Assembly (NCBI GenBank): GCA_964016885.1 | Contig: OZ024747.1 | Coordinates: 90,334,001-90,398,000, forward strand | Length of the DNA stretch: 64,000 nucleotides | DNA from: Eledone cirrhosa | Lineage: Eukaryota | Reading direction: 5' to 3' | In this document: positions 26,881 through 61,400 of the stretch, in pieces | Position numbering within the stretch: position 1 is the stretch's first letter | Layout of the letters: each line of letters starts with the position of its first letter | Program-made: the position numbers and the translations under genes | The notes under the pieces: generated by a model | Told to the model about the DNA's origin: nothing | Databases searched by the model: none | Seen by the model: the letters and a program-made list of their open reading frames with translations, nothing else

Positions 26881-27090
26881 TAAGTATCGGAGGCCTCAGA
26901 TACAACCACCCTTAATTGAGTATCGGAGGCCTCAGATACAACCACCCTTAATTGAGTATCGGAGGCCTCAGATACAACCACCCTTAATTGAGTATCAGAG
27001 GCCTCAGATATAACCACCCTTAATTGAGTATCGGAGGCCTCAGATATAACCACCCTTAATTGAGTATCGGAGGCCTCAGATACAACCACC
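26881..27090. repeat. 36-bp minisatellite (~6 units)
   Basis: Tandem GAGTATCGGAGGCCTCAGATACAACCACCCTTAATT. Confidence 0.95.
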
Positions 27091-37010: not shown

Positions 37011-37220
37011 TCTTCTTCTTCTTCTTCTTCTTCTTCTTCTTCTTCTTCTTCATTTTGTTTTTGTATTTGTTTTTGTTTTTGTTTTTCTTTTCCTTTTTCT
37101 TTTTCTTTTTCTTTTTCTTTTTCTTTTTCTTTTTCTTCTCTTCCTGCTCTTCCTTGTTCTTTTTCTTCTTCTCTTTCTCCTCCTCCTCCTCCTCACCCTT
37201 CTTCTTCTTCTTCTTCTTCT
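37011..37220. repeat. (TTC)n / polypyrimidine tract abutting the satellite
   Basis: Direct reading. Confidence 0.95.
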
Positions 37221-37603
37221 TCCTTATCTCACCTCTATCTCTGTAAACACACTATGTCTCCCTTTCCTTATCTCACCTCTATCTCTGTAAACACAATATG
37301 TCTCCCTTTCCTTATCTCACCCCTATCTTTATAAACACACTATGTCTCCCTTTCCTTATGTCACCTCTATCTCTGTAAACACACTATGTCTCCCTTTCCT
37401 TATCTCACCTCTATCTTTATAAACACATTATGTCTCTCTTTCCTTATCTCACCTCTATCTTTATAAACACACTATGTCTCCCTTTCCTTATCTCACCTCT
37501 ATCTCTGTAAACACACTATGTCTCCCTTTCCTTATCTCACCTCTATTTTTATAAATACACTATGTCTCCCTTTCCTTATCTCACCTCTATCTTTATAAAC
37601 ACA
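37219..37603. repeat. 44-bp satellite, left remnant (~9 units) upstream of the Tx1 insertion
   Basis: Tandem TATGTCTCCCTTTCCTTATCTCACCTCTATCTCTGTAAACACAC units starting directly from a (TTC)n tract. Confidence 0.97.
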
Positions 37604-37837
37604 ATAATCTAGCTGTCGTCTGTTCTACAGTGTGGATGTCATTCACTTCGCACAGAAGTTTTGTTCAAATTTATTGAGGAAATTTTGTGAGTTCAAACTT
37701 AATTTTGATACAATTGTGTAGCTTGACCCTCCGTCTGAACTGTCAGGCGGTGGGTCAGCTCAACTTTACCCCTCCTAGAGGTGAAAAACCTGTTTTAAAA
37801 AAAATTTTGTGTAAAAAATTTCAATCGTCTAACAGAA

Positions 37838-39715
37838 ATGTTAAACGCAGCGAACGAAAATAGTGGTGGGGGGACAGCGGTAAGAGTTGTAAGCTCGCAC
37901 GCTTTAGTCCTCCCTTCCTTCCCAACTAACGTCATAGAGAAGGAAGGAAAAATGAAAATAAAAACGGACGAATCTGCGGAGGAAAAATTAAATGTCGAAA
38001 ACAACGAAGAAAAAAAATTTGAAAAATTGCATGACAATACTAATAACACAAACAAAGACACAACAAACAAAAAAATAACAGTTGAAAATAACATAACATC
38101 AGAAAACAAAGCAGACGACAAGATTTCATTTGCACAGAAAACAAAGAAATCTTTGACTTATATAGCGGAAAACATTTCAGATGTGGTACGAAGGATCACG
38201 GACGCAAAACAATACATAAGTGAAGGTGAGAATGGTATTTTATTGGTAAAAATGCCTCAAGAATTCACGAAAGACATTGAAAGCCGAACGGTCAAGTTTC
38301 GGACCATCAACAACAGTACAAAAAAACCTGAACAGCCTTCTCAAGCAGATATCAAAACAGTACTCGCAGAAGTACTGAATGAAACAACTTTCATAAGAAA
38401 AGACAGACTGTATGGAAGCCTAGCAATTATCATGAAGAACGAATCGGCGGCAAAAAAATGTGCTTTGTCACCGATTCGTTCGAAAAATTTCACCTTTTAT
38501 CCATCTTATATGGGAAAAAAAACTCAACGCATATGGCTGGATGCGATGATGCCAGATGTGGACTACTGCTGGCTCATAGCTGGCTTCATCGATCCAGTGA
38601 ATGACAACGTGATTTCCATTGGGAAAACCACAGGCAATGCGTTCAGTGGAACAGGTATAGAGCTGGTAGTACAAATGAAGCCTGAACGCATCGCCCAAAT
38701 ACCCGACAGAATCCTATTAGAGGACCACGGGTATATAAACATTAGCGTGGAGGGGAGAAGGCCGTCCTGCCATATCTGTGCAGGCAGAGGGCACCTGAAG
38801 GCCGCTTGTCCCCAACTCAACAAAAAGAAAACCCTGCTACCAACACCAGCTCCACCACCACCATCACAACAGATAAACAAACAACAAAACTCAGTCCCAC
38901 CCAACCCGTCCCTCAGTAACACCACAACACCACCACAACACAAACAGTCACAACACATTACCCCAAAACAAAATACAGGCCCACCCAACCTCTCACTCAA
39001 TAAAACAACACAACCACCGCAGACACAACACACAACACAGTCTAACATAGTGACATCCATCTCCCCCACAAAGAAAACCAACACGGAAACATTACCAGCA
39101 AACATACCTCTTCCCTCCAACACTGAAGATAACCCAACGAATTCGGAGGAAGAAACGGAGTCCTTCAGACAGATTAAAAGGAAAAAAAGAAAACATGTGC
39201 AAAACACACAAGGACAAACAACCCCCACCCAAATCGCAACACAATCTAACAAAACAGAAAACACCCCTCCAGCAACAAACAAAACCAAACCTGCCCCTCC
39301 CCTCTTCGAAACACTCACACCATCGGAAAAAAAGACATTACACTATACTTACATCAACAGAAACAATAATAAATTAAATGAACTCATATACAATAATCCT
39401 TCGGTACAAACCGAAGGTGTAAACTTTGTTTCATCAGAAAACCACCCACATTTAAAACTAATAAAAATCCCAATGAACCTCTACCAAAAACTAAAAAAGG
39501 ATTTTAAGGAGGACGTAGGACCACCCTCTGTCAAACCCATAAACCGCGTCCTACTAAAAAGCTTTCCCCCTCCCCTTCCCCTCCCCAACACAACTCCAAA
39601 CACCCCAACCCCACCACACACCGACGACCCCACACCACCACAAGACACCCCTTCACCCAACACCCCCGACCCCATGGAAGTCGTGCAACCCGAACCCCGG
39701 GAAGCGGAAAGGTAG
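37838..39715 (+). CDS. ORF1p (gag-like nucleic-acid-binding protein) of Tx1-like element
   Basis: 625-aa ORF with a CX2CX4HX4C zinc knuckle (CHICAGRGHLKAAC), a basic KRKKRK stretch and a Pro/Thr/Gln-rich C-terminal half. Lies 33 nt upstream of ORF2. Confidence 0.9.
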   Translation: MLNAANENSGGGTAVRVVSSHALVLPSFPTNVIEKEGKMKIKTDESAEEKLNVENNEEKKFEKLHDNTNNTNKDTTNKKITVENNITSENKADDKISFAQKTKKSLTYIAENISDVVRRITDAKQYISEGENGILLVKMPQEFTKDIESRTVKFRTINNSTKKPEQPSQADIKTVLAEVLNETTFIRKDRLYGSLAIIMKNESAAKKCALSPIRSKNFTFYPSYMGKKTQRIWLDAMMPDVDYCWLIAGFIDPVNDNVISIGKTTGNAFSGTGIELVVQMKPERIAQIPDRILLEDHGYINISVEGRRPSCHICAGRGHLKAACPQLNKKKTLLPTPAPPPPSQQINKQQNSVPPNPSLSNTTTPPQHKQSQHITPKQNTGPPNLSLNKTTQPPQTQHTTQSNIVTSISPTKKTNTETLPANIPLPSNTEDNPTNSEEETESFRQIKRKKRKHVQNTQGQTTPTQIATQSNKTENTPPATNKTKPAPPLFETLTPSEKKTLHYTYINRNNNKLNELIYNNPSVQTEGVNFVSSENHPHLKLIKIPMNLYQKLKKDFKEDVGPPSVKPINRVLLKSFPPPLPLPNTTPNTPTPPHTDDPTPPQDTPSPNTPDPMEVVQPEPREAER

Positions 39716-39748
39716 GTCTCTACACTCTCCTTTGGCTCTGCCGCCCAC

Positions 39749-42700
39749 ATGGATGTGTTAAGAGTAGGATGTTTGAATGCACGTGGCCTGGGCTCAACTT
39801 GGAAGCAAGCAAAGCTTCTAAATGACCTCAGGTCATGTAGTATAAATGTAATGGTTATCTGTGAGACTCGAATCAGCGTCATGCGGCAGCTGGCCCCCAC
39901 CTTCGATGACTTTGAGGTGCATGCATCTCTCTGTCAACCTGGAGGTGGGGGTGGGGTTGTCGTGCTGATGCAAAAACACCTGGGTCTTGCCGTACAGGTT
40001 GTGCACTCGGACCCGGAGGGTCGTTTGTTGGTGCTAGACGTTGGCAGTAGTGAAAGTGCGGCCTTGAGACTGGTCGCCGTCTACTCCCCTTTCGGAGCTG
40101 AACGGCCCGACTTCTTCCAGCGTTTGGAGACTTTTCTGGGAACGTCGCGTTCCCTGCTTCTAGCGGGGGATTGGAATGACATCCTAGATGCACGTTGGGA
40201 CTATGCAGGAGCATGTCCTAATAGAGGGGGGTGTAACAGCCTCAAGGGGTTACTCGACCGTTTTAACTTGGTCGATAGATATCGACTAGATTTTCCAACT
40301 GTGCCTACCTGGACTTGGAGAAACCACAGTGGTCAATCTAGATCGTACTTAGATAGATTCTTAGTTAGAAGTAAGGATAGGGACATATTAAGCTGTCCAG
40401 AAATGCGCACGGTTGGCTACACGGATCACAAATTAGTGACCTGCGTGGTCAATCTCGAGAAAACACATAGACAGGGTCCCGGTTACTGGAAACTTAATTT
40501 GTCTTTACCGGCAAAAGAGACTTACAGAAACCGGATTAGCAGATTAGTTAAGGAGAGGTTGACGGGTGCAATCGTCAACAACCGATGGTGGGCATCTCTC
40601 AAAAGAGAGATTAGAACAGAATCAATAAGTTATAGCAAGATGTTAGCTGCCAATAGGAATAGAAACGAGAAAGAATTAACAGGTAAATTAGAAGAGGCAA
40701 TCAAGAGCGAAGATGTGGCCAGAGTGCTGGCATCGAGGACGGCCTTGAACCAGTTTTTCGATGCAAAGCATGAAGGCTGCGTCATTCGAAGTAAAATACG
40801 TGCTCTAGGTAATGAGGGGGCCAAAGCCGTTGGATGGGCCCGCGTGACAGAAGCTAAAAGTGGAAATCGATCCACCATCCGGTCGTTGCAAGACGAAGAT
40901 GGACGAGTGATCCGGGAGCCTAAGCAGATGTGCGAGGCCTTTCAAAAGCACTTTGCCCGATTGTTCGGGGGAGGCGAGGGTCCGGGCCGGGGCGTGGATT
41001 TCGGTCCATACCTCGACGGCCTGCCGCGTCTCTCGAACAAAGAGGCGGAGTCCTGCGAGGGACCAATCTCGGCTGATGAGATCGGAGATGCGCTGAGCCA
41101 ATGCAGCAGACGCAAATCTCCAGGTCTCGATGGTATACCTTACGAACTTTATTTAGCAATGCCGGTCTTCTTCTCCGAACTCCTCGAAGCGGTCTACTGC
41201 AATTGGCAGCAGAACGGGAGAATTCCTTGTTCTGTAGCCAAGGGCGTAGTCACGCTGGTGAGGAAGGACGAGAACAAGGGGGATAGTATAAATAATTTTC
41301 GGCCCATAACCCTGCTAAACACAGAGTTAAAGATTTTGGCCAAGGTGTTAGCAAAGAGGTTGGCGCTTGTCGTGGGTGGCCTGGTGGGAGATGCGCAGAC
41401 ATGTGCTATCCCATCCAGGTCCATTCACGATAACCTCCACCTCATGCGATACATCATAGAGAGGGTTGGCAACAAACCCGGCTTCGGTGGGGCCCTGATC
41501 AACTTGGATCAGTCTAAGGCCTTCGATAGGGTCGACCATGGTTACCTGGATGCGGTGCTAGCGGCGGCTGGGTTCGGTCCTGTTTTCAGAGGCTGGATCA
41601 CTGCCCTACATAGCAACCACATCTGTTCTAGGATCAAGGTGAACGGCTACCTTTCGAAGCCGTTCGAAATCACACGATCCATTCGACAGGGGTGCCCTCT
41701 CTCCTCCCTTCTGTACGTATTGACTCTCGAGCCTTTACTGAGGAAGTTGGAGTTGTTGCAGGGTATCCCCCTGGAACCAGGATTGAGCAAAGCGGTGTCG
41801 GCCTACGCCGATGACGTAACAGTAATGGTATCAACCGACTCGGAGATCGAGGCGATCGGTACCTTACTGGAGGAGTACGAAAGGTTGTCAGGAGCGAAAC
41901 TGAACCGGGAAAAATCCATCGGGCTGCAACTCGGAACGTGGAGAGGCAGACCGATGCCTCCCGATGGTGTCGTCGGACACTGGACGGAGGGCCCGGTAAA
42001 GTTGCTTGGGGTCTGGTTTGGACCGGACCTCCAGGTGGAAAAGAACTGGAACGAGGTTACGAACAAGGTGTTTGCACTAACCCAGAAATGGGCCAAGTGT
42101 AAGCTGTCCCTAAAAGGCCGGGCGGAGGTGGCGAACATTTACATAGCGTCCGTCACTTACTACCGCCTGACTGTCGTGCCTTGCCCTAAGGAAACACTCA
42201 CCACCATGGAACGCATGCTCTTCCAATTTCTTTGGAAGAAGCGTCCTCCTATGGTGAGAAGATCCATCTGCTGCCAACAACCTTCGAAAGGAGGGCTGGG
42301 GATGCCGTGGTTGATGATGCGTAGGCACGCATTAAGGCTACGGCACCTACAGGTATTCCTCACCGGTCAACCGGTGTGGGCTCCGTTCGTGAAACGAGCC
42401 TTTCCGAGACTCGTCTCACTCACCGAGCTACAGTCCTGGGTCAAGCAAAGATCCGGAAAACTGGGAGACTGGCACACTGAGTGTGCTCAGGCGCTCAGGG
42501 CTCTCTGGCAAGCGGGCCGGGCCATCGGTGGAGAATCCACCTCATCATTCTATAGAGGGCTGGTGGCTAGCAGGGGCGATGACACCCTTGGAGAGTCGCT
42601 GGACATGGAAGAAGACGAACTGGCCAGCCTGTTCGGTAGGACTTTCGGCCCAGGACCAATGGACAACTTCCAGAAGTCACTGGCCTGGCAGTGCTACCGA

Positions 42701-43186
42701 GGGGCTCTACCCGTTCGAGAGAGGCTCTACAGACACGGGCGCCCGGGCAGGGATCCCTCAAAAAAGATTTGCCCTAGATGCGTGCGTCACGAAGAAACCG
42801 TGGCGCACGCATTGGTGCAATGTCCGGGCGTGGCTGATCTGTGGGGCTACGCCGAACAACTGCTGTCGCGGGTGGCGCCGATTAAATTGACAGCCGAGTC
42901 CGTGATGACAATCAAACCGCCTCCCCTCTTCACAAAGGAAGCAAAGGCGGTTTTTCTGTGCGTAATAGCCATGTTGAAAGAGGTTGTTTGGTGGACACGA
43001 TTGAAAGGTCTGAGGTCAGGCAACTTCCTCTCTGGCCATAGTCTGGTCTACTTCTTCCGATATCACTTCGGAAGAAGGATAAGAATGGAGAGAGAGGTGC
43101 TTGGCCACAGGCAGTTTTATGAAAGGTGGGTGATAGTGGCGAGAATGGCTCGTGTAAATGGGCCTTCTCTGTATACCATCCTGTAG
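39749..43186 (+). CDS. ORF2p: APE endonuclease + reverse transcriptase + C-terminal Zn finger (Tx1/L1 clade)
   Basis: 1145 aa. APE motifs LNARGL, ICET, VYSP, GDWN, LDRFL, TDH and GYWKLN. RT motifs KSPGLDG, NFRPITLLNTELKILAK, LDQSKAFDRVDH, RQGCPLS, YADD, KLLGVWF and GGLG. C-terminal CPRC-x8-H-x4-C. Confidence 0.97.
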   Translation: MDVLRVGCLNARGLGSTWKQAKLLNDLRSCSINVMVICETRISVMRQLAPTFDDFEVHASLCQPGGGGGVVVLMQKHLGLAVQVVHSDPEGRLLVLDVGSSESAALRLVAVYSPFGAERPDFFQRLETFLGTSRSLLLAGDWNDILDARWDYAGACPNRGGCNSLKGLLDRFNLVDRYRLDFPTVPTWTWRNHSGQSRSYLDRFLVRSKDRDILSCPEMRTVGYTDHKLVTCVVNLEKTHRQGPGYWKLNLSLPAKETYRNRISRLVKERLTGAIVNNRWWASLKREIRTESISYSKMLAANRNRNEKELTGKLEEAIKSEDVARVLASRTALNQFFDAKHEGCVIRSKIRALGNEGAKAVGWARVTEAKSGNRSTIRSLQDEDGRVIREPKQMCEAFQKHFARLFGGGEGPGRGVDFGPYLDGLPRLSNKEAESCEGPISADEIGDALSQCSRRKSPGLDGIPYELYLAMPVFFSELLEAVYCNWQQNGRIPCSVAKGVVTLVRKDENKGDSINNFRPITLLNTELKILAKVLAKRLALVVGGLVGDAQTCAIPSRSIHDNLHLMRYIIERVGNKPGFGGALINLDQSKAFDRVDHGYLDAVLAAAGFGPVFRGWITALHSNHICSRIKVNGYLSKPFEITRSIRQGCPLSSLLYVLTLEPLLRKLELLQGIPLEPGLSKAVSAYADDVTVMVSTDSEIEAIGTLLEEYERLSGAKLNREKSIGLQLGTWRGRPMPPDGVVGHWTEGPVKLLGVWFGPDLQVEKNWNEVTNKVFALTQKWAKCKLSLKGRAEVANIYIASVTYYRLTVVPCPKETLTTMERMLFQFLWKKRPPMVRRSICCQQPSKGGLGMPWLMMRRHALRLRHLQVFLTGQPVWAPFVKRAFPRLVSLTELQSWVKQRSGKLGDWHTECAQALRALWQAGRAIGGESTSSFYRGLVASRGDDTLGESLDMEEDELASLFGRTFGPGPMDNFQKSLAWQCYRGALPVRERLYRHGRPGRDPSKKICPRCVRHEETVAHALVQCPGVADLWGYAEQLLSRVAPIKLTAESVMTIKPPPLFTKEAKAVFLCVIAMLKEVVWWTRLKGLRSGNFLSGHSLVYFFRYHFGRRIRMEREVLGHRQFYERWVIVARMARVNGPSLYTIL

Positions 43187-43401
43187 GTAAAGAAGTAAAG
43201 GAGAGGGGGGCACCTTCTCCATGTGCTCCCCGGGCAAAGGATTGCACACTTTTTCGGGGGTGTGTGCAACCCCCATCACGTCCCCTCCCTTTTGAGGTTA
43301 TTTTCGATTATTTTCATGTTACACCCTTTTTACTCGATTATATGTAAACTCCCCCTTTGTATTTGTCCCTTCTTTTTATGCCTTTATGGTAAATAAAGAA
43401 A

Positions 43402-46400
43402 TCTATCTTTATAAACACACTATGTCTCCCTTTCCTTATCTCACCTCTATCTCTGTAAACACACTATGTCTCCCTTTCCTTATCTCACCTCTATCTTTAT
43501 AAACACACTATGTCTCCCTTTCCTTATCTCACCTCTATCTTTATAAACACACTATGTCTCCCTTTCCTTATCTCACCGCTATCTTTATAAACACACTATG
43601 TCTCCCTTTCCTTATCTCACCTCTATCTCTGTAAACACACTATGTCTCCCTTTCCTTATCTCACCTCTATCTCTGTAAACACACTATGTCTCCCTTTCCT
43701 TATCTCACCTCTATCTCTGTAAACACACTATGTCTCCCTTTCCTTATCTCACCTCTATCTTTATAAACACACTATGTCTCCCTTTCCTTATCTCACCTCT
43801 ATCTTTGTAAACACACTATGTCTCCCTTTCCTTATCTCACCGCTATCTTTATAAACACACTATGTCTCCCTTTCCTTATCTCACCTCTATCTCTGTAAAC
43901 ACACTATGTCTCCCTTTCCTTATCTCACCTCTATCTCTGTAAACACATTATGTCTCCCTTTCCTTATCTCACCTCTATCTCTGTAAACACACTATGTCTC
44001 CCTTTCCTTATCTCACCTCTATCTTTATAAACACACTATGTCTCCCTTTCCTTATCTCACCTCTATCTTTGTAAACACACTATGTCTCCCTTTCCTTATC
44101 TCACCTCTATCTCTGTAAACACACTATGTCTCCCTTTCCTTATCTCACCTCTCTCTCTGTAAACACACTATGTCTCCCTTTCCTTATCTCACCTCTCTCT
44201 CTGTAAACACACTATGTCTCCCTTTCCTTATCTCACCTCTATCTCTGTAAACACACTATGTCTCCCTTTCCTTATCTCACCTCTATCTCTGTAAACACAC
44301 TATGTCTCCCTTTCCTTATCTCACCTCTATCTCTGTAAACACACTATGTCTCCCTTTCCTTATCTCACCTCTATCTCTGTAAACACACTATGTCTCCCTT
44401 TCCTTATCTCACCCCTATCTTTATAAACACACTATGTCTCCCTTTCCTTATCTCACCTCTATCTCTGTAAACACACTATGTCTCCCTTTCCTTATCTCAC
44501 CTCTATCTTTGTAAACACACTATGTCTCCCTTTCCTTATCTCACCTCTATCTCTGTAAACACACTATGTCTCCCTTTCCTTATCTCACCTCTATCTCTGT
44601 AAACACACTATGTCTCCCTTTCTTTATCTCACCTCTATCTCTGTAAACACACTATGTCTCCCTTTCCTTATCTCACCTCTATCTCTGTAAACACACTATG
44701 TCTCCCATCCCTTATCTCACCCCTATCTTTATAAACACACTTTGTCACCCTTTCCTTATCTCACCTCTATCTTTGTAAACACAATATGTCTCCCCTTCCT
44801 TATCTCACCCCTATGTCTGTAAACACACTATGTCTCTCTTTCCTTATCTCACCTCTATCTTTATAAACACACTTTGTCTCCCTTTGCTTATCTCACCTCT
44901 ATCTCTGTAAACACACTATGTCTCCCTTTCCTTATCTCACCTCTATCTCTGTAAACACACTATGTCTCCCTTTCCTTATCTCACCTCTATCTTTGTAAAC
45001 ACACTATGTCTCCCTTTCCTTATCTCACCTCTATCTTTATAAACACACTATGTCTCCCTTTCCTTATCTCACCCCTATCTTTGTAAACACACTATGTCTC
45101 TCTTTCCTTATCTCACCTCTATCTCTGTAAACACACTATGTCTCTCTTTCCTTGTCTCACCTCTATCTTTGTAAACACACTATGTCTCCCTTTCCTTATC
45201 TCACCTCTATCTTTATAAACACACTATGTCTCCCTTTCCTTATCTCACCTCTATCTTTATAAACACACTATGTCTCCCTTTCCTTATCTCACCGCTATCT
45301 TTATAAACACACTATGTCTCCCTTTCCTTATCTCACCTCTATCTCTGTAAACACACTATGTCTCCCTTTCCTTATCTCACCTCTATCTCTGTAAACACAC
45401 TATGTCTCCCTTTCCTTATCTCACCTCTATCTCTGTAAACACACTATGTCTCCCTTTCCTTATCTCACCTCTATCTTTATAAACACACTATGTCTCCCTT
45501 TCCTTATCTCACCTCTATCTTTGTAAACACACTATGTCTCCCTTTCCTTATCTCACCGCTATCTTTATAAACACACTATGTCTCCCTTTCCTTATCTCAC
45601 CTCTATCTCTGTAAACACACTATGTCTCCCTTTCCTTATCTCACCTCTATCTCTGTAAACACATTATGTCTCCCTTTCCTTATCTCACCTCTATCTCTGT
45701 AAACACACTATGTCTCCCTTTCCTTATCTCACCTCTATCTTTATAAACACACTATGTCTCCCTTTCCTTATCTCACCTCTATCTTTGTAAACACACTATG
45801 TCTCCCTTTCCTTATCTCACCTCTATCTCTGTAAACACACTATGTCTCCCTTTCCTTATCTCACCTCTCTCTCTGTAAACACACTATGTCTCCCTTTCCT
45901 TATCTCACCTCTCTCTCTGTAAACACACTATGTCTCCCTTTCCTTATCTCACCTCTATCTCTGTAAACACACTATGTCTCCCTTTCCTTATCTCACCTCT
46001 ATCTCTGTAAACACACTATGTCTCCCTTTCCTTATCTCACCTCTATCTCTGTAAACACACTATGTCTCCCTTTCCTTATCTCACCTCTATCTCTGTAAAC
46101 ACACTATGTCTCCCTTTCCTTATCTCACCCCTATCTTTATAAACACACTATGTCTCCCTTTCCTTATCTCACCTCTATCTCTGTAAACACACTATGTCTC
46201 CCTTTCCTTATCTCACCTCTATCTTTGTAAACACACTATGTCTCCCTTTCCTTATCTCACCTCTATCTCTGTAAACACACTATGTCTCCCTTTCCTTATC
46301 TCACCTCTATCTCTGTAAACACACTATGTCTCCCTTTCTTTATCTCACCTCTATCTCTGTAAACACACTATGTCTCCCTTTCCTTATCTCACCTCTATCT

Positions 46401-49400
46401 CTGTAAACACACTATGTCTCCCATCCCTTATCTCACCCCTATCTTTATAAACACACTTTGTCACCCTTTCCTTATCTCACCTCTATCTTTGTAAACACAA
46501 TATGTCTCCCCTTCCTTATCTCACCCCTATGTCTGTAAACACACTATGTCTCTCTTTCCTTATCTCACCTCTATCTTTATAAACACACTTTGTCTCCCTT
46601 TGCTTATCTCACCTCTATCTCTGTAAACACACTATGTCTCCCTTTCCTTATCTCACCTCTATCTCTGTAAACACACTATGTCTCCCTTTCCTTATCTCAC
46701 CTCTATCTTTGTAAACACACTATGTCTCCCTTTCCTTATCTCACCTCTATCTTTATAAACACACTATGTCTCCCTTTCCTTATCTCACCCCTATCTTTGT
46801 AAACACACTATGTCTCTCTTTCCTTATCTCACCTCTATCTCTGTAAACACACTATGTCTCTCTTTCCTTGTCTCACCTCTATCTTTGTAAACACACTATG
46901 TCTCCCTTTCCTTATCTCACCTCTATCTCTGTAAACACACTATGTCTCCCTTTCCTTATCTCACCTCTATCTTTATAAACACACTTTGTCTCCCTTTGCT
47001 TATCTCACCTCTATCTCTGTAAACACACTATGTCTCCCTTTCCTTATCTTACCTCTATCTCTGTAAACACACTATGTCTCCCTTTCCTTATCTCACCGCT
47101 ATCTCTGTAAACACACTATGTCTCCCTTTCCTTATCTCACCTCTATCTTTATAAACACACTATGTCTCCCTTTCCTTATCTCACCTCTATCTTTATAAAC
47201 ACACTATGTCTCCCTTTCCTTATCTCACCTCTATCTCTGTAAACACACTATGTCTCCCTTTCCTTATCTCACCCCTATCTTTATAAACACACTATGTCTC
47301 CCTTTCCTTATCTCACCTCTATCTCTGTAAACACATTATGTCCCCCTTTCCTTATCTCACCTCTATCTTTGTAAACACACTATGTCCCCCTTTCCTTATC
47401 TCACCTCTATCTTTATAAACACACTATGTCTCCCTTTCCTTATCTCACCTCTATCTTTATAAACACACTATGTCTCCCTTTCCTTATCTCACCTCTATCT
47501 CTGTAAACACATTATGTCCCCCTTTCCTTATCTCACCTCTATCTTTGTAAACACACTATGTCTCCCTTTCCTTATCTCACCTCTAACTCTGTAAACACAC
47601 TATGTCTCCCTTTCCTTATCTCACCCCTATGTCTGTAAACACACTATGTCTCCCTTTCCTTATCTCACCTCTATCTTTATAAACACACTATGTCTCCCTT
47701 TCCTTATCTCACCTCTATCTCTGTAAACACACTATGTCTTCCTTTCCTTATCTCACCTCTATCTTTATAAACACACTATATCAACCTTTCCTTATCTCAC
47801 CTCTATCTATGTAAACACACTATGTCTCCCTTTCCTTATCTCACCTCTATCTCTATAAACACACTATGTCTCCCTTTCCTTATCTCACCCCTATGTCTGT
47901 AAACACACTATGTCTCCCTTTCCTTATCTCACCTCTATCTCTGTAAACACACTATGTCTCCCTTTCCTTATCTCACCTCTATCTCTGTAAATACACTATG
48001 TCTCCCTTTCCTTATCTCACCTCTATCTCTGTAAATACACTATGTCTCCCTTTCCTTATCTCACCTCTAACTCTGTAAACACACTATGTCTCTCTTTCCT
48101 TATCTCACCTCTAACTCTGTAAACACACTATGTCTCCCTTTCCTTATCTCACCTCTATCTCTGTAAACACACTATGTCTCCCTTTCCTTATCTCACCTCT
48201 ATCTCTGTAAACACACTATGTCTCCCTTTCCTTATCTCACCTCTAACTCTGTAAACACACTATGTCTCCCTTTCCTTATCTCACCTCTATCTCTGTAAAC
48301 ACACTATGTCTCCCTTTCCTTATCTCACCTCTATCTCTGTAAACACACTATGTCTCCCTTTCCTTATCTCACCTCTATCTCTGTAAACACACTATGTCTC
48401 CCTTTCCTTATCTCACCTCTATCTATGTAAACACACTATGTCTCCCTTTCCTTATCTCACCTCTATCTCTGTAAACACACTATGTCTCCCTTTCCTTATC
48501 TCACCCCTATGTCTGTAAACACACTATGTCTCCCTTTCCTTATCTCACCTCTATCTCTGTAAACACACTGTGTCTCCCTTTCCTTATCTCACCTCTATCT
48601 CTGTAAACACACTATGTCTCCCTTTCCTTATCTCACCTCCATCTCTGTAAACACACTATGTCTCCCTTTCCTTATCTCACCCCTATCTCTGTAAACACAC
48701 TATGTCTCCCTTTCCTTATCTCACCTCTATCTCTGTAAACACACTATGTCTCCCTTTCCTTATCTCACCTCTATCTCTGTAAACACACTATGTCTCCCTT
48801 TCCTTATCTCACCTCTCTCTCTGTAAACACACTATGTCTCCCTTTCCTTATCTCACCTCTATCTTTATAAACACACTATGTCTCTCATTCCTTATCTCAC
48901 CTCTATCTCTGTAAACACACTATGTCTCCCTTTCCTTATCTCACCTCTATCTCTATAAACACACTATGTCTCCCTTTCCTTATCTCACCTCTATCTTTAT
49001 AAACACACTATGTCTCTCATTCCTTATCTCACCTCTATCTCTGTAAACACACTATGTCTCCCTTTCCTTATCTCACCTCTATCTCTGTAAACACACTGTG
49101 TCTCCCTTTCCTTATCTCACATCTATCTCTGTAAACACACTATGTCTCCCTTTCCTTATCTCACCTCTATCTCTGTAAACACACTATGTCTCCCTTTCCT
49201 TATCTCACCTCTATCTCTGTAAACACACTATGTCTCCCTTTCCTTATCTCACCTCTCTCTCTGTAAACACACTATGTCTCCCTTTCCTTATCTCACCTCT
49301 ATCTTTATAAACACACTATGTCTCTCATTCCTTATCTCACCTCTATCTCTGTAAACACACTATGTCTCCCTTTCCTTATCTCACCTCTATCTCTATAAAC

Positions 49401-52400
49401 ACACTATGTCTCCCTTTCCTTATCTCACCTCTATCTTTATAAACACACTATGTCTCTCATTCCTTATCTCACCTCTATCTCTGTAAACACACTATGTCTC
49501 CCTTTCCTTATCTCACCTCTATCTTTGTAAACACACTATGTCTCTCTTTCCTTATCTCACCTCTATCTTTGTAAACACACTATGTCTCCCTTTCCTTATC
49601 TCACCTCTATCTCTGTAAACACACTGTGTCTCCCTTTCCTTATCTCACCCCTATCTTTATAAACACACTATGTCTCCCTTTCCTTATCTCACCTCTATCT
49701 TTGTAAACACACTATGTCTCCCTGTCCTTATCTCAACTCTATCTCTGTAAACACACTATGTCTCCCTTTCCTTATCTCACCCCTATCTTTATAAACACAC
49801 TATGTCTCCCTTTCCTTATCTCACCTCTATCTCTGTAAACACACTATGTCTCCCTTTCCTTATCTCACCTCTAACTCTGTAAACACACTATGTCTCCCTT
49901 TCCTTATCTCACCTCTATCTCTGTAAACACACTATGTCTCCCTTTCCTTATCTCACCTCTATCTATGTAAACACACTATGTCTCCCTTTCCTTATCTCAC
50001 CTCTATCTCTATAAACACACTATGTCTCCCTTTCCTTATCTCACCCCTATCTCTGTAAACACACTATGTCTCCCTTTCCTTATCTCACCTCTATCTCTGT
50101 AAACACACTATGTCTCCCTTTCCTTATCTCACCTCTATCTCTATAAACACACTATGTCTCCCTTTCCTTATCTCACCTCTATCTTTATAAACACACTATG
50201 TCTCCCTTTCCTTATCTCACCTCTATCTCTGTAAACACACTATGTCTCCCTTTCCTTATCTCACCTCTATCTATGTAAACACACTATGTCTCCCTTTCCT
50301 TATCTCACCTCTATCTCTGTAAACACACTATGTCTCCCTTTCCTTATCTCACCTCTATCTTTATAAACACACTATGTCTCCCTTTCCTTATCTCACCTCT
50401 ATCTCTGTAAACACACTATGTCTCCCTTTCCTTATCTCACCTCTATCTCTGTAAACACACTATGTCTCCCTTTCATTATCTCACCTCTAACTCTGTAAAC
50501 ACACTATGTCTCCCTTTCCTTATCTCACCTCTCTCTCTGTAAACACACTATGTCTCCCTTTCCTTATCTCACCTCTATCTCTGTAAACACACTATGTCTC
50601 CCTTTCCTTATCTCACCTCTATCTCTGTAAACACACTATGTCTCCCTTTCATTATCTCACCTCTAACTCTGTAAACACACTATGTCTCCCTTTCCTTATC
50701 TCACCTCTAACTCTGTAAACACACTATGTCTCCCTTTCCTTATCTCACCTCTATCTCTGTAAACACACTATGTCTCCCTTTCCTTATCTCACCTCTATAT
50801 TTTATAAACACACTGTGTCTTCCTTTCCTTATCTCACCCCTATCTTTATAAACACACTATGTCTCCCTTTCCTTATCTCACCTCTATCTTTGTAAACACA
50901 CTATGTCTCCCTGTCCTTATCTCACCTCTATCTCTGTAAACACACTATGTCTCCCTTTCCTTATCTCACCTCTATCTTTGTAAACACACTATGTCTCTCT
51001 TTCCTTATCTCACCCCTATGTCTGTAAACACACTATGTCTCCCTTCCCTTATCTCACCCCTATCTTTATAAACACACTATGTCTCCCTTTCCTTATCTCA
51101 CCCCTATGTCTGTAAACACACTATGTCTCCCTTTCCTTATCTCATCTCTATCTTTATAAACACACTATGTCTTCCTTTCCTTATCTCACCTCTATCTCTG
51201 TAAACACACTATGTCTCCCTTTCCTTATCTCACCTCTATCTCTGTAAACACACTATGTCTCCCTTTCCTTATCTCACCTCTATCTCTGTAAACACACTAT
51301 GTCTCCCTTTCCTTATCTCACCTCTATCTCTGTAAACACACTATGTCTCCCTTTCCTTATCTCACCTCTATCTATGTAAACACACTATGTCTCCCTTTCC
51401 TTATCTCACCTCTATCTCTATAAACACACTATGTCTCCCTTTCCTTATCTCACCCCTATCTCTGTAAACACACTATGTCTCCCTTTCCTTATCTCACCTC
51501 TATCTCTGTAAACACACTATGTCTCCCTTTCCTTATCTCACCTCTATCTCTATAAACACACTATGTCTCCCTTTCCTTATCTCACCTCTATCTTTATAAA
51601 CACACTATGTCTCCCTTTCCTTATCTCACCTCTATCTCTGTAAACACACTATGTCTCCCTTTCCTTATCTCACCTCTATCTATGTAAACACACTATGTCT
51701 CCCTTTCCTTATCTCACCTCTATCTCTGTAAACACACTATGTCTCCCTTTCCTTATCTCACCTCTATCTTTATAAACACACTATGTCTCCCTTTCCTTAT
51801 CTCACCTCTATCTCTGTAAACACACTATGTCTCCCTTTCCTTATCTCACCTCTATCTCTGTAAACACACTATGTCTCCCTTTCATTATCTCACCTCTAAC
51901 TCTGTAAACACACTATGTCTCCCTTTCCTTATCTCACCTCTCTCTCTGTAAACACACTATGTCTCCCTTTCCTTATCTCACCTCTATCTCTGTAAACACA
52001 CTATGTCTCCCTTTCCTTATCTCACCTCTATCTCTGTAAACACACTATGTCTCCCTTTCATTATCTCACCTCTAACTCTGTAAACACACTATGTCTCCCT
52101 TTCCTTATCTCACCTCTAACTCTGTAAACACACTATGTCTCCCTTTCCTTATCTCACCTCTATCTCTGTAAACACACTATGTCTCCCTTTCCTTATCTCA
52201 CCTCTATCTTTATAAACACACTATGTCTCCCTTTCCTTATCTCACCTCTATCTCTGTAAACACACTATGTCTCCCTTTCCTTATCTCACCTCTATCTCTG
52301 TAAACACACTATGTCTCCCTTTCATTATCTCACCTCTAACTCTGTAAACACACTATGTCTCCCTTTCCTTATCTCACCTCTCTCTCTGTAAACACACTAT

Positions 52401-55400
52401 GTCTCCCTTTCCTTATCTCACCTCTATCTCTGTAAACACACTATGTCTCCCTTTCCTTATCTCACCTCTATCTCTGTAAACACACTATGTCTCCCTTTCA
52501 TTATCTCACCTCTAACTCTGTAAACACACTATGTCTCCCTTTCCTTATCTCACCTCTAACTCTGTAAACACACTATGTCTCCCTTTCCTTATCTCACCTC
52601 TATCTCTGTAAACACACTATGTCTCCCTTTCCTTATCTCACCTCTATATTTTATAAACACACTGTGTCTTCCTTTCCTTATCTCACCCCTATCTTTATAA
52701 ACACACTATGTCTCCCTTTCCTTATCTCACCTCTATCTCTGTAAACACACTATGTCTCCCTTTCCTTATCTCACCTCTATATTTTATAAACACACTGTGT
52801 CTTCCTTTCCTTATCTCACCCCTATCTTTATAAACACACTATGTCTCCCTTTCCTTATCTCACCTCTATCTTTGTAAACACACTATGTCTCCCTGTCCTT
52901 ATCTCACCTCTATCTCTGTAAACACACTATGTCTCCCTTTCCTTATCTCACCTCTATCTTTGTAAACACACTATGTCTCTCTTTCCTTATCTCACCCCTA
53001 TGTCTGTAAACACACTATGTCTCCCTTCCCTTATCTCACCCCTATCTTTATAAACACACTATGTCTCCCTTTCCTTATCTCACCCCTATGTCTGTAAACA
53101 CACTATGTCTCCCTTTCCTTATCTCATCTCTATCTTTATAAACACACTATGTCTTCCTTTCCTTATCTCACCTCTATCTCTGTAAACACACTATGTCTCC
53201 CTTTCCTTATCTCACCTCTATCTCTGTAAACACACTATGTCTCCCTTTCCTTATCTCACCTCTATCTCTGTAAACACACTATGTCTCCCTTTCCTTATCT
53301 CACCTCTATCTCTGTAAACACACTATGTCTCCCTTTCCTTATCTCACCTCTATCTATGTAAACACACTATGTCTCCCTTTCCTTATCTCACCTCTATCTC
53401 TATAAACACACTATGTCTCCCTTTCCTTATCTCACCCCTATCTCTGTAAACACACTATGTCTCCCTTTCCTTATCTCACCTCTATCTCTGTAAACACACT
53501 ATGTCTCCCTTTCCTTATCTCACCTCTATCTCTATAAACACACTATGTCTCCCTTTCCTTATCTCACCTCTATCTTTATAAACACACTATGTCTCCCTTT
53601 CCTTATCTCACCTCTATCTCTGTAAACACACTATGTCTCCCTTTCCTTATCTCACCTCTATCTATGTAAACACACTATGTCTCCCTTTCCTTATCTCACC
53701 TCTATCTCTGTAAACACACTATGTCTCCCTTTCCTTATCTCACCTCTATCTTTATAAACACACTATGTCTCCCTTTCCTTATCTCACCTCTATCTCTGTA
53801 AACACACTATGTCTCCCTTTCCTTATCTCACCTCTATCTCTGTAAACACACTATGTCTCCCTTTCATTATCTCACCTCTAACTCTGTAAACACACTATGT
53901 CTCCCTTTCCTTATCTCACCTCTCTCTCTGTAAACACACTATGTCTCCCTTTCCTTATCTCACCTCTATCTCTGTAAACACACTATGTCTCCCTTTCCTT
54001 ATCTCACCTCTATCTCTGTAAACACACTATGTCTCCCTTTCATTATCTCACCTCTAACTCTGTAAACACACTATGTCTCCCTTTCCTTATCTCACCTCTA
54101 ACTCTGTAAACACACTATGTCTCCCTTTCCTTATCTCACCTCTATCTCTGTAAACACACTATGTCTCCCTTTCCTTATCTCACCTCTATCTTTATAAACA
54201 CACTATGTCTCCCTTTCCTTATCTCACCTCTATCTCTGTAAACACACTATGTCTCCCTTTCCTTATCTCACCTCTATCTCTGTAAACACACTATGTCTCC
54301 CTTTCATTATCTCACCTCTAACTCTGTAAACACACTATGTCTCCCTTTCCTTATCTCACCTCTCTCTCTGTAAACACACTATGTCTCCCTTTCCTTATCT
54401 CACCTCTATCTCTGTAAACACACTATGTCTCCCTTTCCTTATCTCACCTCTATCTCTGTAAACACACTATGTCTCCCTTTCATTATCTCACCTCTAACTC
54501 TGTAAACACACTATGTCTCCCTTTCCTTATCTCACCTCTAACTCTGTAAACACACTATGTCTCCCTTTCCTTATCTCACCTCTATCTCTGTAAACACACT
54601 ATGTCTCCCTTTCCTTATCTCACCTCTATATTTTATAAACACACTGTGTCTTCCTTTCCTTATCTCACCCCTATCTTTATAAACACACTATGTCTCCCTT
54701 TCCTTATCTCACCTCTATCTTTGTAAACACACTATGTCTCCCTGTCCTTATCTCACCTCTATCTCTGTAAACACACTATGTCTCCCTTTCCTTATCTCAC
54801 CTCTATCTTTGTAAACACACTATGTCTCTCTTTCCTTATCTCACCCCTATGTCTGTAAACACACTATGTCTCCCTTCCCTTATCTCACCCCTATCTTTAT
54901 AAACACACTATGTCTCCCTTTCCTTATCTCACCCCTATGTCTGTAAACACACTATGTCTCCCTTTCCTTATCTCATCTCTATCTTTATAAACACACTATG
55001 TCTTCCTTTCCTTATCTCACCTCTATCTCTGTAAACACACTATGTCTCCCTTTCCTTATCTCACCTCTATCTCTGTAAACACACTATGTCTCCCTTTCCT
55101 TATCTCACCTCTATCTCTGTAAACACACTATGTCTCCCTTTCCTTATCTCACCTCTATCTCTGTAAACACACTATGTCTCCCTTTCCTTATCTCACCTCT
55201 ATCTATGTAAACACACTATGTCTCCCTTTCCTTATCTCACCTCTATCTCTATAAACACACTATGTCTCCCTTTCCTTATCTCACCCCTATCTCTGTAAAC
55301 ACACTATGTCTCCCTTTCCTTATCTCACCTCTATCTCTGTAAACACACTATGTCTCCCTTTCCTTATCTCACCTCTATCTCTATAAACACACTATGTCTC

Positions 55401-58400
55401 CCTTTCCTTATCTCACCTCTATCTTTATAAACACACTATGTCTCCCTTTCCTTATCTCACCTCTATCTCTGTAAACACACTATGTCTCCCTTTCCTTATC
55501 TCACCTCTATCTATGTAAACACACTATGTCTCCCTTTCCTTATCTCACCTCTATCTCTGTAAACACACTATGTCTCCCTTTCCTTATCTCACCTCTATCT
55601 TTATAAACACACTATGTCTCCCTTTCCTTATCTCACCTCTATCTCTGTAAACACACTATGTCTCCCTTTCCTTATCTCACCTCTATCTCTGTAAACACAC
55701 TATGTCTCCCTTTCATTATCTCACCTCTAACTCTGTAAACACACTATGTCTCCCTTTCCTTATCTCACCTCTCTCTCTGTAAACACACTATGTCTCCCTT
55801 TCCTTATCTCACCTCTATCTCTGTAAACACACTATGTCTCCCTTTCCTTATCTCACCTCTATCTCTGTAAACACACTATGTCTCCCTTTCATTATCTCAC
55901 CTCTAACTCTGTAAACACACTATGTCTCCCTTTCCTTATCTCACCTCTAACTCTGTAAACACACTATGTCTCCCTTTCCTTATCTCACCTCTCTCTCTGT
56001 AAACACACTATGTCTCCCTTTCCTTATCTCACCTCTATCTCTGTAAACACACTATGTCTCCCTTTCCTTATCTCACCTCTATCTCTGTAAACACACTATG
56101 TCTCCCTTTCATTATCTCACCTCTATCTCTGTAAACACACTATGTCTCCCTTTCCTTATCTCACCTCTATCTCTGTAAACACACTATGTCTCCCATCCCT
56201 TATCTCACCCCTATCTTTATAAACACACTTTGTCACCCTTTCCTTATCTCACCTCTATCTTTGTAAACACAATATGTCTCCCCTTCCTTATCTCACCCCT
56301 ATGTCTGTAAACACACTATGTCTCTCTTTCCTTATCTCACCTCTATCTTTATAAACACACTTTGTCTCCCTTTGCTTATCTCACCTCTATCTCTGTAAAC
56401 ACACTATGTCTCCCTTTCCTTATCTCACCTCTATCTCTGTAAACACACTATGTCTCCCTTTCCTTATCTCACCTCTATCTTTGTAAACACACTATGTCTC
56501 CCTTTCCTTATCTCACCTCTATCTTTATAAACACACTATGTCTCCCTTTCCTTATCTCACCCCTATCTTTGTAAACACACTATGTCTCTCTTTCCTTATC
56601 TCACCTCTATCTCTGTAAACACACTATGTCTCTCTTTCCTTGTCTCACCTCTATCTTTGTAAACACACTATGTCTCCCTTTCCTTATCTCACCTCTATCT
56701 CTGTAAACACACTATGTCTCCCTTTCCTTATCTCACCTCTATCTTTATAAACACACTATGTCTCCCTTTCCTTATCTCACCGCTATCTCTGTAAACACAC
56801 TATGTCTCCCTTTGCTTATCTCACCTCTATCTTTATAAACACACTTTGTCTCCCTTTGCTTATCTCACCTCTATCTCTGTAAACACACTATGTCTCCCTT
56901 TCCTTATCTTACCTCTATCTCTGTAAACACACTATGTCTCCCTTTCCTTATCTTACCTCTATCTCTGTAAACACACTATGTCTCCCTTTCCTTATCTCAC
57001 CGCTATCTCTGTAAACACACTATGTCTCCCTTTCCTTATCTCACCTCTATCTTTATAAACACACTATGTCTCCCTTTCCTTATCTCACCTCTATCTTTAT
57101 AAACACACTATGTCTCCCTTTCCTTATCTCACCTCTATCTCTGTAAACACACTATGTCTCCCTTTCCTTATCTCACCCCTATCTTTATAAACACACTATG
57201 TCTCCCTTTCCTTATCTCACCTCTATCTCTGTAAACACATTATGTCCCCCTTTCCTTATCTCACCTCTATCTTTGTAAACACACTATGTCCCCCTTTCCT
57301 TATCTCACCTCTATCTTTATAAACACACTATGTCTCCCTTTCCTTATCTCACCTCTATCTTTATAAACACACTATGTCTCCCTTTCCTTATCTCACCTCT
57401 ATCTCTGTAAACACATTATGTCCCCCTTTCCTTATCTCACCTCTATCTTTGTAAACACACTATGTCTCCCTTTCCTTATCTCACCTCTAACTCTGTAAAC
57501 ACACTATGTCTCCCTTTCCTTATCTCACCCCTATGTCTGTAAACACACTATGTCTCCCTTTCCTTATCTCACCTCTATCTTTGTAAACACACTATGTCTC
57601 TCTTTCCTTATCTCACCCCTATGTCTGTAAACACACTATGTCTCCCTTCCCTTATCTCACCCCTATCTTTATAAACACACTATGTCTCCCTTTCCTTATC
57701 TCACCCCTATGTCTGTAAACACACTATGTCTCCCTTTCCTTATCTCATCTCTATCTTTATAAACACACTATGTCTTCCTTTCCTTATCTCACCTCTATCT
57801 CTGTAAACACACTATGTCTCCCTTTCCTTATCTCACCTCTATCTCTGTAAACACACTATGTCTCCCTTTCCTTATCTCACCTCTATCTCTGTAAACACAC
57901 TATGTCTCCCTTTCCTTATCTCACCTCTATCTCTGTAAACACACTATGTCTCCCTTTCCTTATCTCACCTCTATCTATGTAAACACACTATGTCTCCCTT
58001 TCCTTATCTCACCTCTATCTCTATAAACACACTATGTCTCCCTTTCCTTATCTCACCCCTATCTCTGTAAACACACTATGTCTCCCTTTCCTTATCTCAC
58101 CTCTATCTCTGTAAACACACTATGTCTCCCTTTCCTTATCTCACCTCTATCTCTATAAACACACTATGTCTCCCTTTCCTTATCTCACCTCTATCTTTAT
58201 AAACACACTATGTCTCCCTTTCCTTATCTCACCTCTATCTCTGTAAACACACTATGTCTCCCTTTCCTTATCTCACCTCTATCTATGTAAACACACTATG
58301 TCTCCCTTTCCTTATCTCACCTCTATCTCTGTAAACACACTATGTCTCCCTTTCCTTATCTCACCTCTATCTTTATAAACACACTATGTCTCCCTTTCCT

Positions 58401-61400
58401 TATCTCACCTCTATCTCTGTAAACACACTATGTCTCCCTTTCCTTATCTCACCTCTATCTCTGTAAACACACTATGTCTCCCTTTCATTATCTCACCTCT
58501 AACTCTGTAAACACACTATGTCTCCCTTTCCTTATCTCACCTCTCTCTCTGTAAACACACTATGTCTCCCTTTCCTTATCTCACCTCTATCTCTGTAAAC
58601 ACACTATGTCTCCCTTTCCTTATCTCACCTCTATCTCTGTAAACACACTATGTCTCCCTTTCATTATCTCACCTCTAACTCTGTAAACACACTATGTCTC
58701 CCTTTCCTTATCTCACCTCTAACTCTGTAAACACACTATGTCTCCCTTTCCTTATCTCACCTCTCTCTCTGTAAACACACTATGTCTCCCTTTCCTTATC
58801 TCACCTCTATCTCTGTAAACACACTATGTCTCCCTTTCCTTATCTCACCTCTATCTCTGTAAACACACTATGTCTCCCTTTCATTATCTCACCTCTATCT
58901 CTGTAAACACACTATGTCTCCCTTTCCTTATCTCACCTCTATCTCTGTAAACACACTATGTCTCCCATCCCTTATCTCACCCCTATCTTTATAAACACAC
59001 TTTGTCACCCTTTCCTTATCTCACCTCTATCTTTGTAAACACAATATGTCTCCCCTTCCTTATCTCACCCCTATGTCTGTAAACACACTATGTCTCTCTT
59101 TCCTTATCTCACCTCTATCTTTATAAACACACTTTGTCTCCCTTTGCTTATCTCACCTCTATCTCTGTAAACACACTATGTCTCCCTTTCCTTATCTCAC
59201 CTCTATCTCTGTAAACACACTATGTCTCCCTTTCCTTATCTCACCTCTATCTTTGTAAACACACTATGTCTCCCTTTCCTTATCTCACCTCTATCTTTAT
59301 AAACACACTATGTCTCCCTTTCCTTATCTCACCCCTATCTTTGTAAACACACTATGTCTCTCTTTCCTTATCTCACCTCTATCTCTGTAAACACACTATG
59401 TCTCTCTTTCCTTGTCTCACCTCTATCTTTGTAAACACACTATGTCTCCCTTTCCTTATCTCACCTCTATCTCTGTAAACACACTATGTCTCCCTTTCCT
59501 TATCTCACCTCTATCTTTATAAACACACTATGTCTCCCTTTCCTTATCTCACCGCTATCTCTGTAAACACACTATGTCTCCCTTTGCTTATCTCACCTCT
59601 ATCTTTATAAACACACTTTGTCTCCCTTTGCTTATCTCACCTCTATCTCTGTAAACACACTATGTCTCCCTTTCCTTATCTTACCTCTATCTCTGTAAAC
59701 ACACTATGTCTCCCTTTCCTTATCTTACCTCTATCTCTGTAAACACACTATGTCTCCCTTTCCTTATCTCACCGCTATCTCTGTAAACACACTATGTCTC
59801 CCTTTCCTTATCTCACCTCTATCTTTATAAACACACTATGTCTCCCTTTCCTTATCTCACCTCTATCTTTATAAACACACTATGTCTCCCTTTCCTTATC
59901 TCACCTCTATCTCTGTAAACACACTATGTCTCCCTTTCCTTATCTCACCCCTATCTTTATAAACACACTATGTCTCCCTTTCCTTATCTCACCTCTATCT
60001 CTGTAAACACATTATGTCCCCCTTTCCTTATCTCACCTCTATCTTTGTAAACACACTATGTCCCCCTTTCCTTATCTCACCTCTATCTTTATAAACACAC
60101 TATGTCTCCCTTTCCTTATCTCACCTCTATCTTTATAAACACACTATGTCTCCCTTTCCTTATCTCACCTCTATCTCTGTAAACACATTATGTCCCCCTT
60201 TCCTTATCTCACCTCTATCTTTGTAAACACACTATGTCTCCCTTTCCTTATCTCACCTCTAACTCTGTAAACACACTATGTCTCCCTTTCCTTATCTCAC
60301 CCCTATGTCTGTAAACACACTATGTCTCCCTTTCCTTATCTCACCTCTATCTTTATAAACAGACTATGTCTCCCTTTCCTTATCTCACCTCTATCTCTGT
60401 AAACACACTATGTCTTCCTTTCCTTATCTCACCTCTATCTTTATAAACACACTATATCTCCCTTTCCTTATCTCACCTCTATCTATGTAAACACACTATG
60501 TCTCCCTTTCCTTATCTCACCTCTATCTCTATAAACACACTATGTCTCCCTTTCCTTATCTCACCCCTATGTCTGTAAACACACTATGTCTCCCTTTCCT
60601 TATCTCACCTCTATCTTTATAAACACACTATGTCTCCCTTTCCTTATCTCACCTCTATCTCTGTAAATACACTATGTCTCCCTTTCCTTATCTCACCTCT
60701 ATCTCTGTAAATACACTATGTCTCCCTTTCCTTATCTCACCTCTAACTCTGTAAACACACTATGTCTCCCTTTCCTTATCTCACCTCTAACTCTGTAAAC
60801 ACACTATGTCTCCCTTTCCTTATCTCACCTCTATCTCTGTAAACACACTATGTCTCCCTTTCCTTATCTCACCTCTATCTCTGTAAACACACTATGTCTC
60901 CCTTTCCTTATCTCACCTCTAACTCTGTAAACACACTATGTCTCCCTTTCCTTATCTCACCTCTATCTCTGTAAACACACTATGTCTCCCTTTCCTTATC
61001 TCACCTCTATCTCTGTAAACACACTATGTCTCCCTTTCCTTATCTCACCTCTATCTCTGTAAACACACTATGTCTCCCTTTCCTTATCTCACCTCTATCT
61101 ATGTAAACACACTATGTCTCCCTTTCCTTATCTCACCTCTATCTCTGTAAACACACTATGTCTCCCTTTCCTTATCTCACCCCTATGTCTGTAAACACAC
61201 TATGTCTCCCTTTCCTTATCTCACCTCTATCTCTGTAAACACACTGTGTCTCCCTTTCCTTATCTCACCTCTATCTCTGTAAACACACTATGTCTCCCTT
61301 TCCTTATCTCACCTCTATCTCTGTAAACACACTATGTCTCCCTTTCCTTATCTCACCCCTATCTCTGTAAACACACTATGTCTCCCTTTCCTTATCTCAC

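Follow-up and report, generated by a model that had tools for sequence, protein, structure and literature searches.

Waldo and Mino of the R1 clade and Dong of the R4 clade are retrotransposons lacking long terminal repeats (non-LTR elements) that target microsatellites. Their targets are ACAY and AC for Waldo/Mino and TAA for Dong, and the microsatellite targets listed (ACAY, AC, TC, TTC and TAA) do not include TATC (PMC3812793, in part). Among Tx1 elements, the teleost families Kibi and Koshi insert into (TC)n and (TTC)n, respectively, and the crocodilian Tx1-1_Crp group inserts into (TTCC)n or (TTTC)n (PMC4494074, in part). Here, we describe a full-length, probable Tx1-type element located in a 64,000-nt stretch of Eledone cirrhosa DNA (OZ024747.1, 90,334,001-90,398,000; hereafter the window, whose numbering is used below). 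The element very likely represents a young, high-copy long interspersed nuclear element (LINE) family that inserts directly 5' of TAT(C/A)T(A/t)T and for the most part within (TATC)n, probably through recognition and nicking of the (GATA)n strand by its apurinic/apyrimidinic endonuclease (APE), with the 44-bp satellite that hosts the window copy likely being an incidental near-match. Like Kibi, Koshi and the Tx1-1_Crp group, the window family consists of APE-type L1-group elements inserting into pyrimidine-strand microsatellites (PMC4494074 and PMC3812793, both in part), and a further likeness to Kibi and Koshi is that the nearest named vertebrate relatives of its lineage are fish and turtle proteins. 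It differs from Kibi and Koshi in its octopod-like host lineage, its TATC unit and its tolerance of TA (a comparison by description, not by sequence), its target being neither (TC)n nor (TTC)n, and its unit also differs from those of Waldo/Mino and Dong.

The element is organized as follows.

37604..43403, + strand: probable Tx1-type non-LTR retrotransposon, full length, 5,800 bp, 3' end AATAAAGAAATC, delimited by exact 5'- and 3'-end matches genome-wide
37604..37837, + strand: 5' untranslated region (UTR), with a start that differs from that of the sister family
37838..39715, + strand: open reading frame (ORF) 1, 625 aa, CCHC zinc knuckle and low-complexity Pro/Thr/Asn C-terminal half
about 38768-38809, + strand: ORF1 CCHC zinc knuckle, CHICAGRGHLKAAC
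39749..43186, + strand: ORF2, 1145 aa, APE endonuclease, reverse transcriptase (RT) and C-terminal CX2CX8HX4C zinc finger
43187..43403, + strand: 3' UTR with AATAAA (43392-43397), GAAA and the inherited terminal TC, without poly(A)

Both ORF1 and ORF2 are open in the window copy. ORF2 matches the Pfam families Exo_endo_phos, RVT_1 and zf-RVT and retains N10, E39, Y112, GDWN 140, D202, TDH 225, QGCPLS 647 and YADD 686; the catalytic residues of the endonuclease are intact, and the catalytic motifs align with those of human L1 ORF2p, the best solved-structure match (E 1e-50 vs 1e-20 for R2). ORF1 has no Pfam match at E 0.1, and its CX2CX4HX4C zinc knuckle is visible in the translation. Between residues 120 and 335 it is similar to zf-CCHC and ZCCHC3-RBD clusters, with scores of 0.89-0.91, a similarity that we treat as a lead only. 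A zinc knuckle in ORF1 is a feature of the Tx1 clade. ORF1 followed by an ORF2 that carries APE at its N terminus, then RT and a CCHC finger at its C terminus, is the arrangement of L1-group APE-type elements. The original prediction, which had been made from the window sequence alone, was thus accurate in describing an APE, RT and zinc-finger element with two open ORFs, as confirmed by translations, Pfam domains and motifs, and in noting almost no poly(A) after AATAAA, which is followed by GAAA. The window copy is young, since 1 substitution and 1 indel over 5,798 nt separate it from the most similar copy elsewhere. Both ORFs are open in 12 of the 59 full-length copies inspected, a sample biased to close copies in that about half are best BLAST matches.

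Exact-match patterns for the element ends were searched against the 3.0-Gb genome (G000), resulting in 1,661 exact 3' ends (last 21 nt) and 691 exact 5' ends (18-nt motif). T[C/A]TAT directly follows 1,603 of the 1,661 3' ends. The earlier suggestion of an active, sequence-specific and probably Tx1-type family is supported. NN-TATCTAT follows 1,319 of them, and the TATCTAT background is 3.2e-4 per position (12 random 10-kb loci). A looser 3'-end pattern, which includes the window family, returned 6,211 ends followed by TATCTATCT. A sister family, 83% identical in both DNA and ORF2, has 1,974 3' ends in the same genome; it ends in TA, CT, CA or TC, and TAT[C/A]T follows in all 30 cases read. 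The family and its relatives have more than 8,000 3' ends, which cluster in microsatellites and interrupt satellites.

Inspection of 79 further regions (39 around best matches, 35 full-length pairs located at the beginning of C1, and 5 picked exceptions) gave 83 junction pairs including that of the window, or 82 once one duplicate was removed. The motif after the junction is TATCTAT in 63 of these pairs, TATATAT in 8 and TATCTTT in 2, with TCTCTCT following two junctions, both of them sampled as exceptions. (TATC)3 lies within 45 bp of 57 of the 82 pairs, as compared to 0.14% of random positions. A Tx1 family is regarded as target-specific when more than 20% of its flanks are of one sequence type (PMC4494074, in part), and both the (TATC)3 and the NN-TATCTAT fractions exceed this value. 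The constant 3' end, the target-site duplications (TSDs) and the varying 5' truncation (21 of the 82 inspected copies are 5'-truncated) form the signature of target-primed reverse transcription. Two copies (L109 and L110) share an AT-rich sequence after GAAATATA; this sequence is probably another transposon inserted at the junction TA, and some of the non-motif exceptions would thereby be accounted for.

To distinguish a target from a copied tail, we relied on 27 unambiguous TSDs, whose lengths range from 14 to 22 nt with a mode of 19 (10 of 27). In these the 5' copy of the duplication also holds the motif, and the motif therefore predated the insertion. The TATC unit is absent upstream in 10 of the 27, and none of these 10 gained a unit at the 3' junction. 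Together these two results indicate that the repeat is the target and not the tail of the element, and the possibility that (TATC)n is a copied RNA tail was ruled out by the same 10 informative sites. Upstream of the junction, target bases -4 to -1 are T in 22, A in 21, T in 24 and C in 23 of the 27 sites. The dinucleotide after GAAA differs between element and target in 13 of 27 cases and clusters in a tree of the copies, with 6 changes as compared to 15.9 when shuffled (0 of 500 shuffles); with the variation seen in the sister family, these results indicate that the dinucleotide is encoded by the element. The same junctions bear on the proposal that insertion is random, with copies surviving in neutral microsatellite-rich DNA, or that the repeats grew later from the element tail. 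The genome is indeed rich in TA and TATC repeats, and passive accumulation has been described for Drosophila Waldo (PMC3812793, in part). Against this proposal, the junctions are base-precise and strand-specific in copies 99.5-100% identical to the window copy, and the motif stands on both sides, including at the non-repetitive insertion sites of L103, L106 and the window. We consider random insertion or later repeat growth very improbable.

The window copy itself is inserted in a 44-bp satellite. The features of this site and of the related satellite insertions are given below.

37220..37603, + strand: 44-bp tandem array, left arm, 8.7 units (Tandem Repeats Finder and monomer listing)
37586..37603, + strand: 5' direct-repeat copy, comprising the target TC (37586-37587) and the probable 16-bp TSD TATCTTTATAAACACA (37588-37603)
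43404..43419, + strand: probable 16-bp TSD, 3' copy (sequence comparison with the 5' copy)
43404..64000, + strand: 44-bp array, right arm, running on to G000:C7:90459224, with two sister-family insertions past the window
C7:90371220-90459224: 44-bp array as a whole, about 71 kb, 1,619 units (genome pattern search)
C7:90434872-90440110 and 90448776-90454510: sister-family insertions in the 44-bp array (L114-L116)
G000:C17:4785001-4845000: 32-bp satellite region (L242-L247)

An 18-bp direct repeat, TCTATCTTTATAAACACA, is present at 37586-37603 and 43402-43419 and extends in neither direction. This 18-mer is a monomer variant that occurs 66 times in the window, and for that reason it is the unbroken 44-bp monomer register across the insertion that constitutes real evidence of insertion. 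Because the two bases after GAAA are encoded by the element, the TC at 43402-43403 probably matches the target by coincidence and the true duplication is probably 16 bp. The previously proposed perfect 18-bp TSD cut from one monomer consequently holds as a repeat, with the register kept across the insertion, though probably not in its length. The proposed cut at CACC|TCTATC likewise required adjustment, as the observed cut lies at least 2 nt further right.

It had been suggested that the family is specific for this satellite. In favor of such specificity, all three insertions in the array share the same monomer position, CACCTC^TATCTTT, and the same orientation, as a fixed-position pairing would have it, and all three are in the TATCTTT variant, which makes up 443 of the 1,252 TCTATCT sites of the array. 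Both sister insertions carry a 7-bp TSD, with ORF2 open in one copy and interrupted by a stop in the other. The two TSDs are identical despite signs of separate events; a single duplicated event is unlikely, given 24 mismatches over 5,239 nt and differing 5' ends and flanking monomer variants, and the two insertions are probably independent. Against satellite specificity, a satellite junction is found at 1 of the 1,661 exact 3' ends, namely the window's own copy, which is far from the more than 20% of copies expected of a satellite-specific family. The satellite is moreover a single-locus sequence (1,110 of 1,111 exact monomer-pattern matches in the genome fall in one array), whereas TATCTAT in (TATC)n is the site genome-wide. 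TATCTTT follows 172+40 junctions, the 40 belonging to the sister family, and the number of array hits expected from motif content is about 1 vs 3 seen (P(3 or more)=0.08, not significant), a rough estimate whose numerator disregards upstream bases and misses diverged subfamilies. Other tandem repeats are hit alike. An unrelated 32-bp satellite on C17 with TATCTTTATA holds nine sister-family 3' ends with about 4-5 distinct 5' truncations, some of the insertions having been duplicated along with the array; segmental duplicates of 15 kb and tandem fragments of 1.3 kb are among them. Sister-family 3' junctions are also present in further short tandem repeats that contain TATCTTT or TATCTT (L218, L219, L220 and L222). 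These results exclude specificity for the 44-bp satellite, a reading to which we assign next to no probability, and the window insertion most likely occurred in the satellite only via a near-match in its repeat unit. The motif is also far too common for the suggested use as a site-specific integration tool: the minor variant TCTATCTTT alone is present at 94,468 sites in the genome, and the element therefore cannot serve as a single-site tool.

At the junctions, the 3' end is constant, the motif belongs to the duplication and thus stands on either side, no tail is added, the dinucleotide is inherited and re-insertion beside older members is seen. A mechanism that would produce these characteristics begins with the APE nicking the bottom (GATA)n strand at about 5'-ATAGATA^GA-3'; given that TAT does not vary on either side, the nick may instead lie a few bases further into it. 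The transcript would extend 10-20 nt beyond AATAAA, entering the TATC repeat of the flank, and this read-through RNA would pair with the nicked primer, such that reverse transcription begins at a fixed internal point and no poly(A) is copied. The top strand would then be cut, in staggered fashion, 16-20 nt downstream, generating the TSD and regenerating the target, and a regenerated target would favor tandem and nested clusters. The 3' end of another member lies within 120 bp upstream in 29 of the 82 copies. Head-to-tail arrays of 3-4 copies with only TATC spacers between them were observed at L039-L040, L055-L056 and L036. Some tandem neighbors are identical over the compared 2.5 kb and others differ; the identical ones may be duplications, and the differing ones represent re-insertion.

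The same events could be explained by a weakly specific endonuclease that makes AT-rich nicks, with the motif bias arising from primer pairing with 3' UAUC repeats of the RNA. The absence of poly(A), the fixed 3' end and the position of AATAAA, which ends 6 nt ahead of the junction, imply that the transcript enters the flank, (TA)n sites are tolerated (the 8 TATATAT junctions), and integration of R2Ol is raised by annealing of read-through RNA to the target (PMC6530143, in part), all of which agree with an RNA-driven choice. However, the target is also kept upstream, at positions -4 to -1, beyond the reach of read-through RNA-primer pairing (although this may reflect microsatellite context), no varying count of added units is seen at the 10 informative sites, and the related Tx1L-EN is itself specific, nicking its own target almost exclusively (PMC1950540, in part). 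We therefore regard RNA pairing as the sole source of specificity as rather unlikely and favor recognition of the (GATA)n strand by the APE.

Several observations weigh against this preferred reading. Genomic junctions do not separate endonuclease recognition from RNA-primer pairing. The TSD results come from 27 of the 82 pairs, with 13-22 nt allowed; pure repeats were left aside, as was one tandem cluster, and matches had to begin at the first base past the dinucleotide. No TSD of at least 6 nt was found in 10 of the 21 5'-truncated copies and 2 of the 61 full-length copies, and duplications of only 4-7 bp are present in L061 and in the two sister copies inside the array. The sister family, taken alone, has 2 insertions in the 44-bp array where 0.19 would be expected (P=0.016, post hoc), and a single other satellite accounts for 8 of its 40 TATCTTT junctions. 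A true, mild preference for TATCTTTATA arrays is accordingly possible.

The nearest named relative of the element is from Argonauta hians (63-68% identity), in line with an octopod host, followed by proteins of about 50% identity in the RT and then by the proteins from fish and turtle (36-40%). Among 20 homologue clusters looked up, 1 had a name. An RT phylogeny with named Tx1 families had been recommended along with the original prediction. The tree obtained, a quick IQ-TREE analysis of 93 rows with a fungal-protein root and no L1 or named Tx1 row, places the window lineage together with the proteins from fish and turtle (SH-aLRT 98). Membership in the Tx1 clade is likely. A metagenome scan recovered APE elements adjoining small nuclear RNA (snRNA) fragments, those of U2 having been identified with Rfam, as listed here.

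Marine metagenome contig L248:4675-4885: APE LINE adjoining U2 snRNA
Marine metagenome contig L254:5815-5977: APE LINE adjoining U2 snRNA
Marine metagenome contig L257:9076-9230: APE LINE adjoining U1 snRNA

The sequence at the very start of L250 and L254 also looks snRNA-like, and the U1-flanked L257 element may represent a U1-targeting family. An APE together with insertion in U2 defines Keno, in which the U2 flank begins at nt 39, TA^TCTG (PMC4640811, in part); this flank start is 2 nt off the minimal junction of the window family. The Keno-like L248 and L254 share 38-39% RT identity with the window element and score 407-466 bits over ORF2, vs 175 for human L1 (bit scores being independent of the differing database sizes), and their U2 flank GTATCTGT is close to the CTATCTAT of the window family, a likeness that we treat as a lead only. 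They end in A-rich tails, in contrast to the window family without poly(A). In the RT tree they occupy a clade separate from the window lineage, both clades being inside a 63-row group (SH-aLRT 89), and origin of the window family from within Keno is unsupported. Visual inspection of the 82 junction pairs showed no U2 flank, and the flanks are microsatellite-like. The relatives recovered from the metagenomes are all distant (33 loci with full-length matches, 26-31% identity to the first sequence of the alignment).

The (TATC)n target is likely a new motif within an already known class of sequence-specific elements, and it extends the known target range of sequence-specific LINEs of the APE type to (TATC)n/(GATA)n. 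No (TATC)n-targeting Tx1 appeared in the literature searched, with Repbase and Kojima and Fujiwara 2004 outside its scope and a prior entry there possible. Satellites are already among the listed Tx1 targets (PMC4494074, Fig. 3 legend, in part), and what is apparently unreported is the (TATC)n motif. In Octopus vulgaris, 421 insertions are listed for 13 L1-Tx1 families of recent activity (PMC13282606, Table 1), along with 80 families in the supplement; the words 'target' and 'satellite' are absent from the main text and 'target' and 'TSD' from one supplement, and PMC5753468 and PMC10294476 (both in part) hold nothing further on targets. The present results accordingly concern a lineage whose L1-Tx1 families have been counted, with targets undescribed in the literature covered. 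The part played by the nuclease or by RNA-primer pairing in site choice has been called not well understood (PMC3812793, in part). The thousands of dated junctions provide an unusually deep in vivo specificity profile, the intact copies permit a direct test of nuclease versus RNA-primer pairing, and the element shapes its genome, with its many 3' ends in microsatellites and its interruption of satellites. A broader and decidedly tentative proposal is a Tx1 radiation in octopods, so far undescribed and still active, with more than 8,000 copies and an APE that would read a TATCT core also flanking the Keno U2 site, such that microsatellite, satellite and U2 targeting would be variants of one recognition code; any larger tandem array with TATCTTTATA would also act as a hotspot, and self-regenerating nested clusters would be built.

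The remainder of the window was described as holding only decayed elements. An ORF scan, the one analysis applied to this point, gave five stop-free frames of at least 200 aa ahead of 37.5 kb, four of which are low-complexity or repeat-derived. A stop-free frame of 241 aa is present at 17647-18370 (+ strand), which we take to resemble a DNA-transposase fragment. Past the window, the right end of the 44-bp array (L117 past about 1240; G000:C7:90459240 onward) adjoins what appears by eye to be an RT-coding fragment of another retroelement. Other tandem repeats in the window are located at 10763-11340, 23789-25173, 26883-27090 and 37011-37222 (66-bp, 20-bp and 36-bp units and a TTC/T-rich tract), and the TTC/T-rich tract adjoins the left edge of the 44-bp array.

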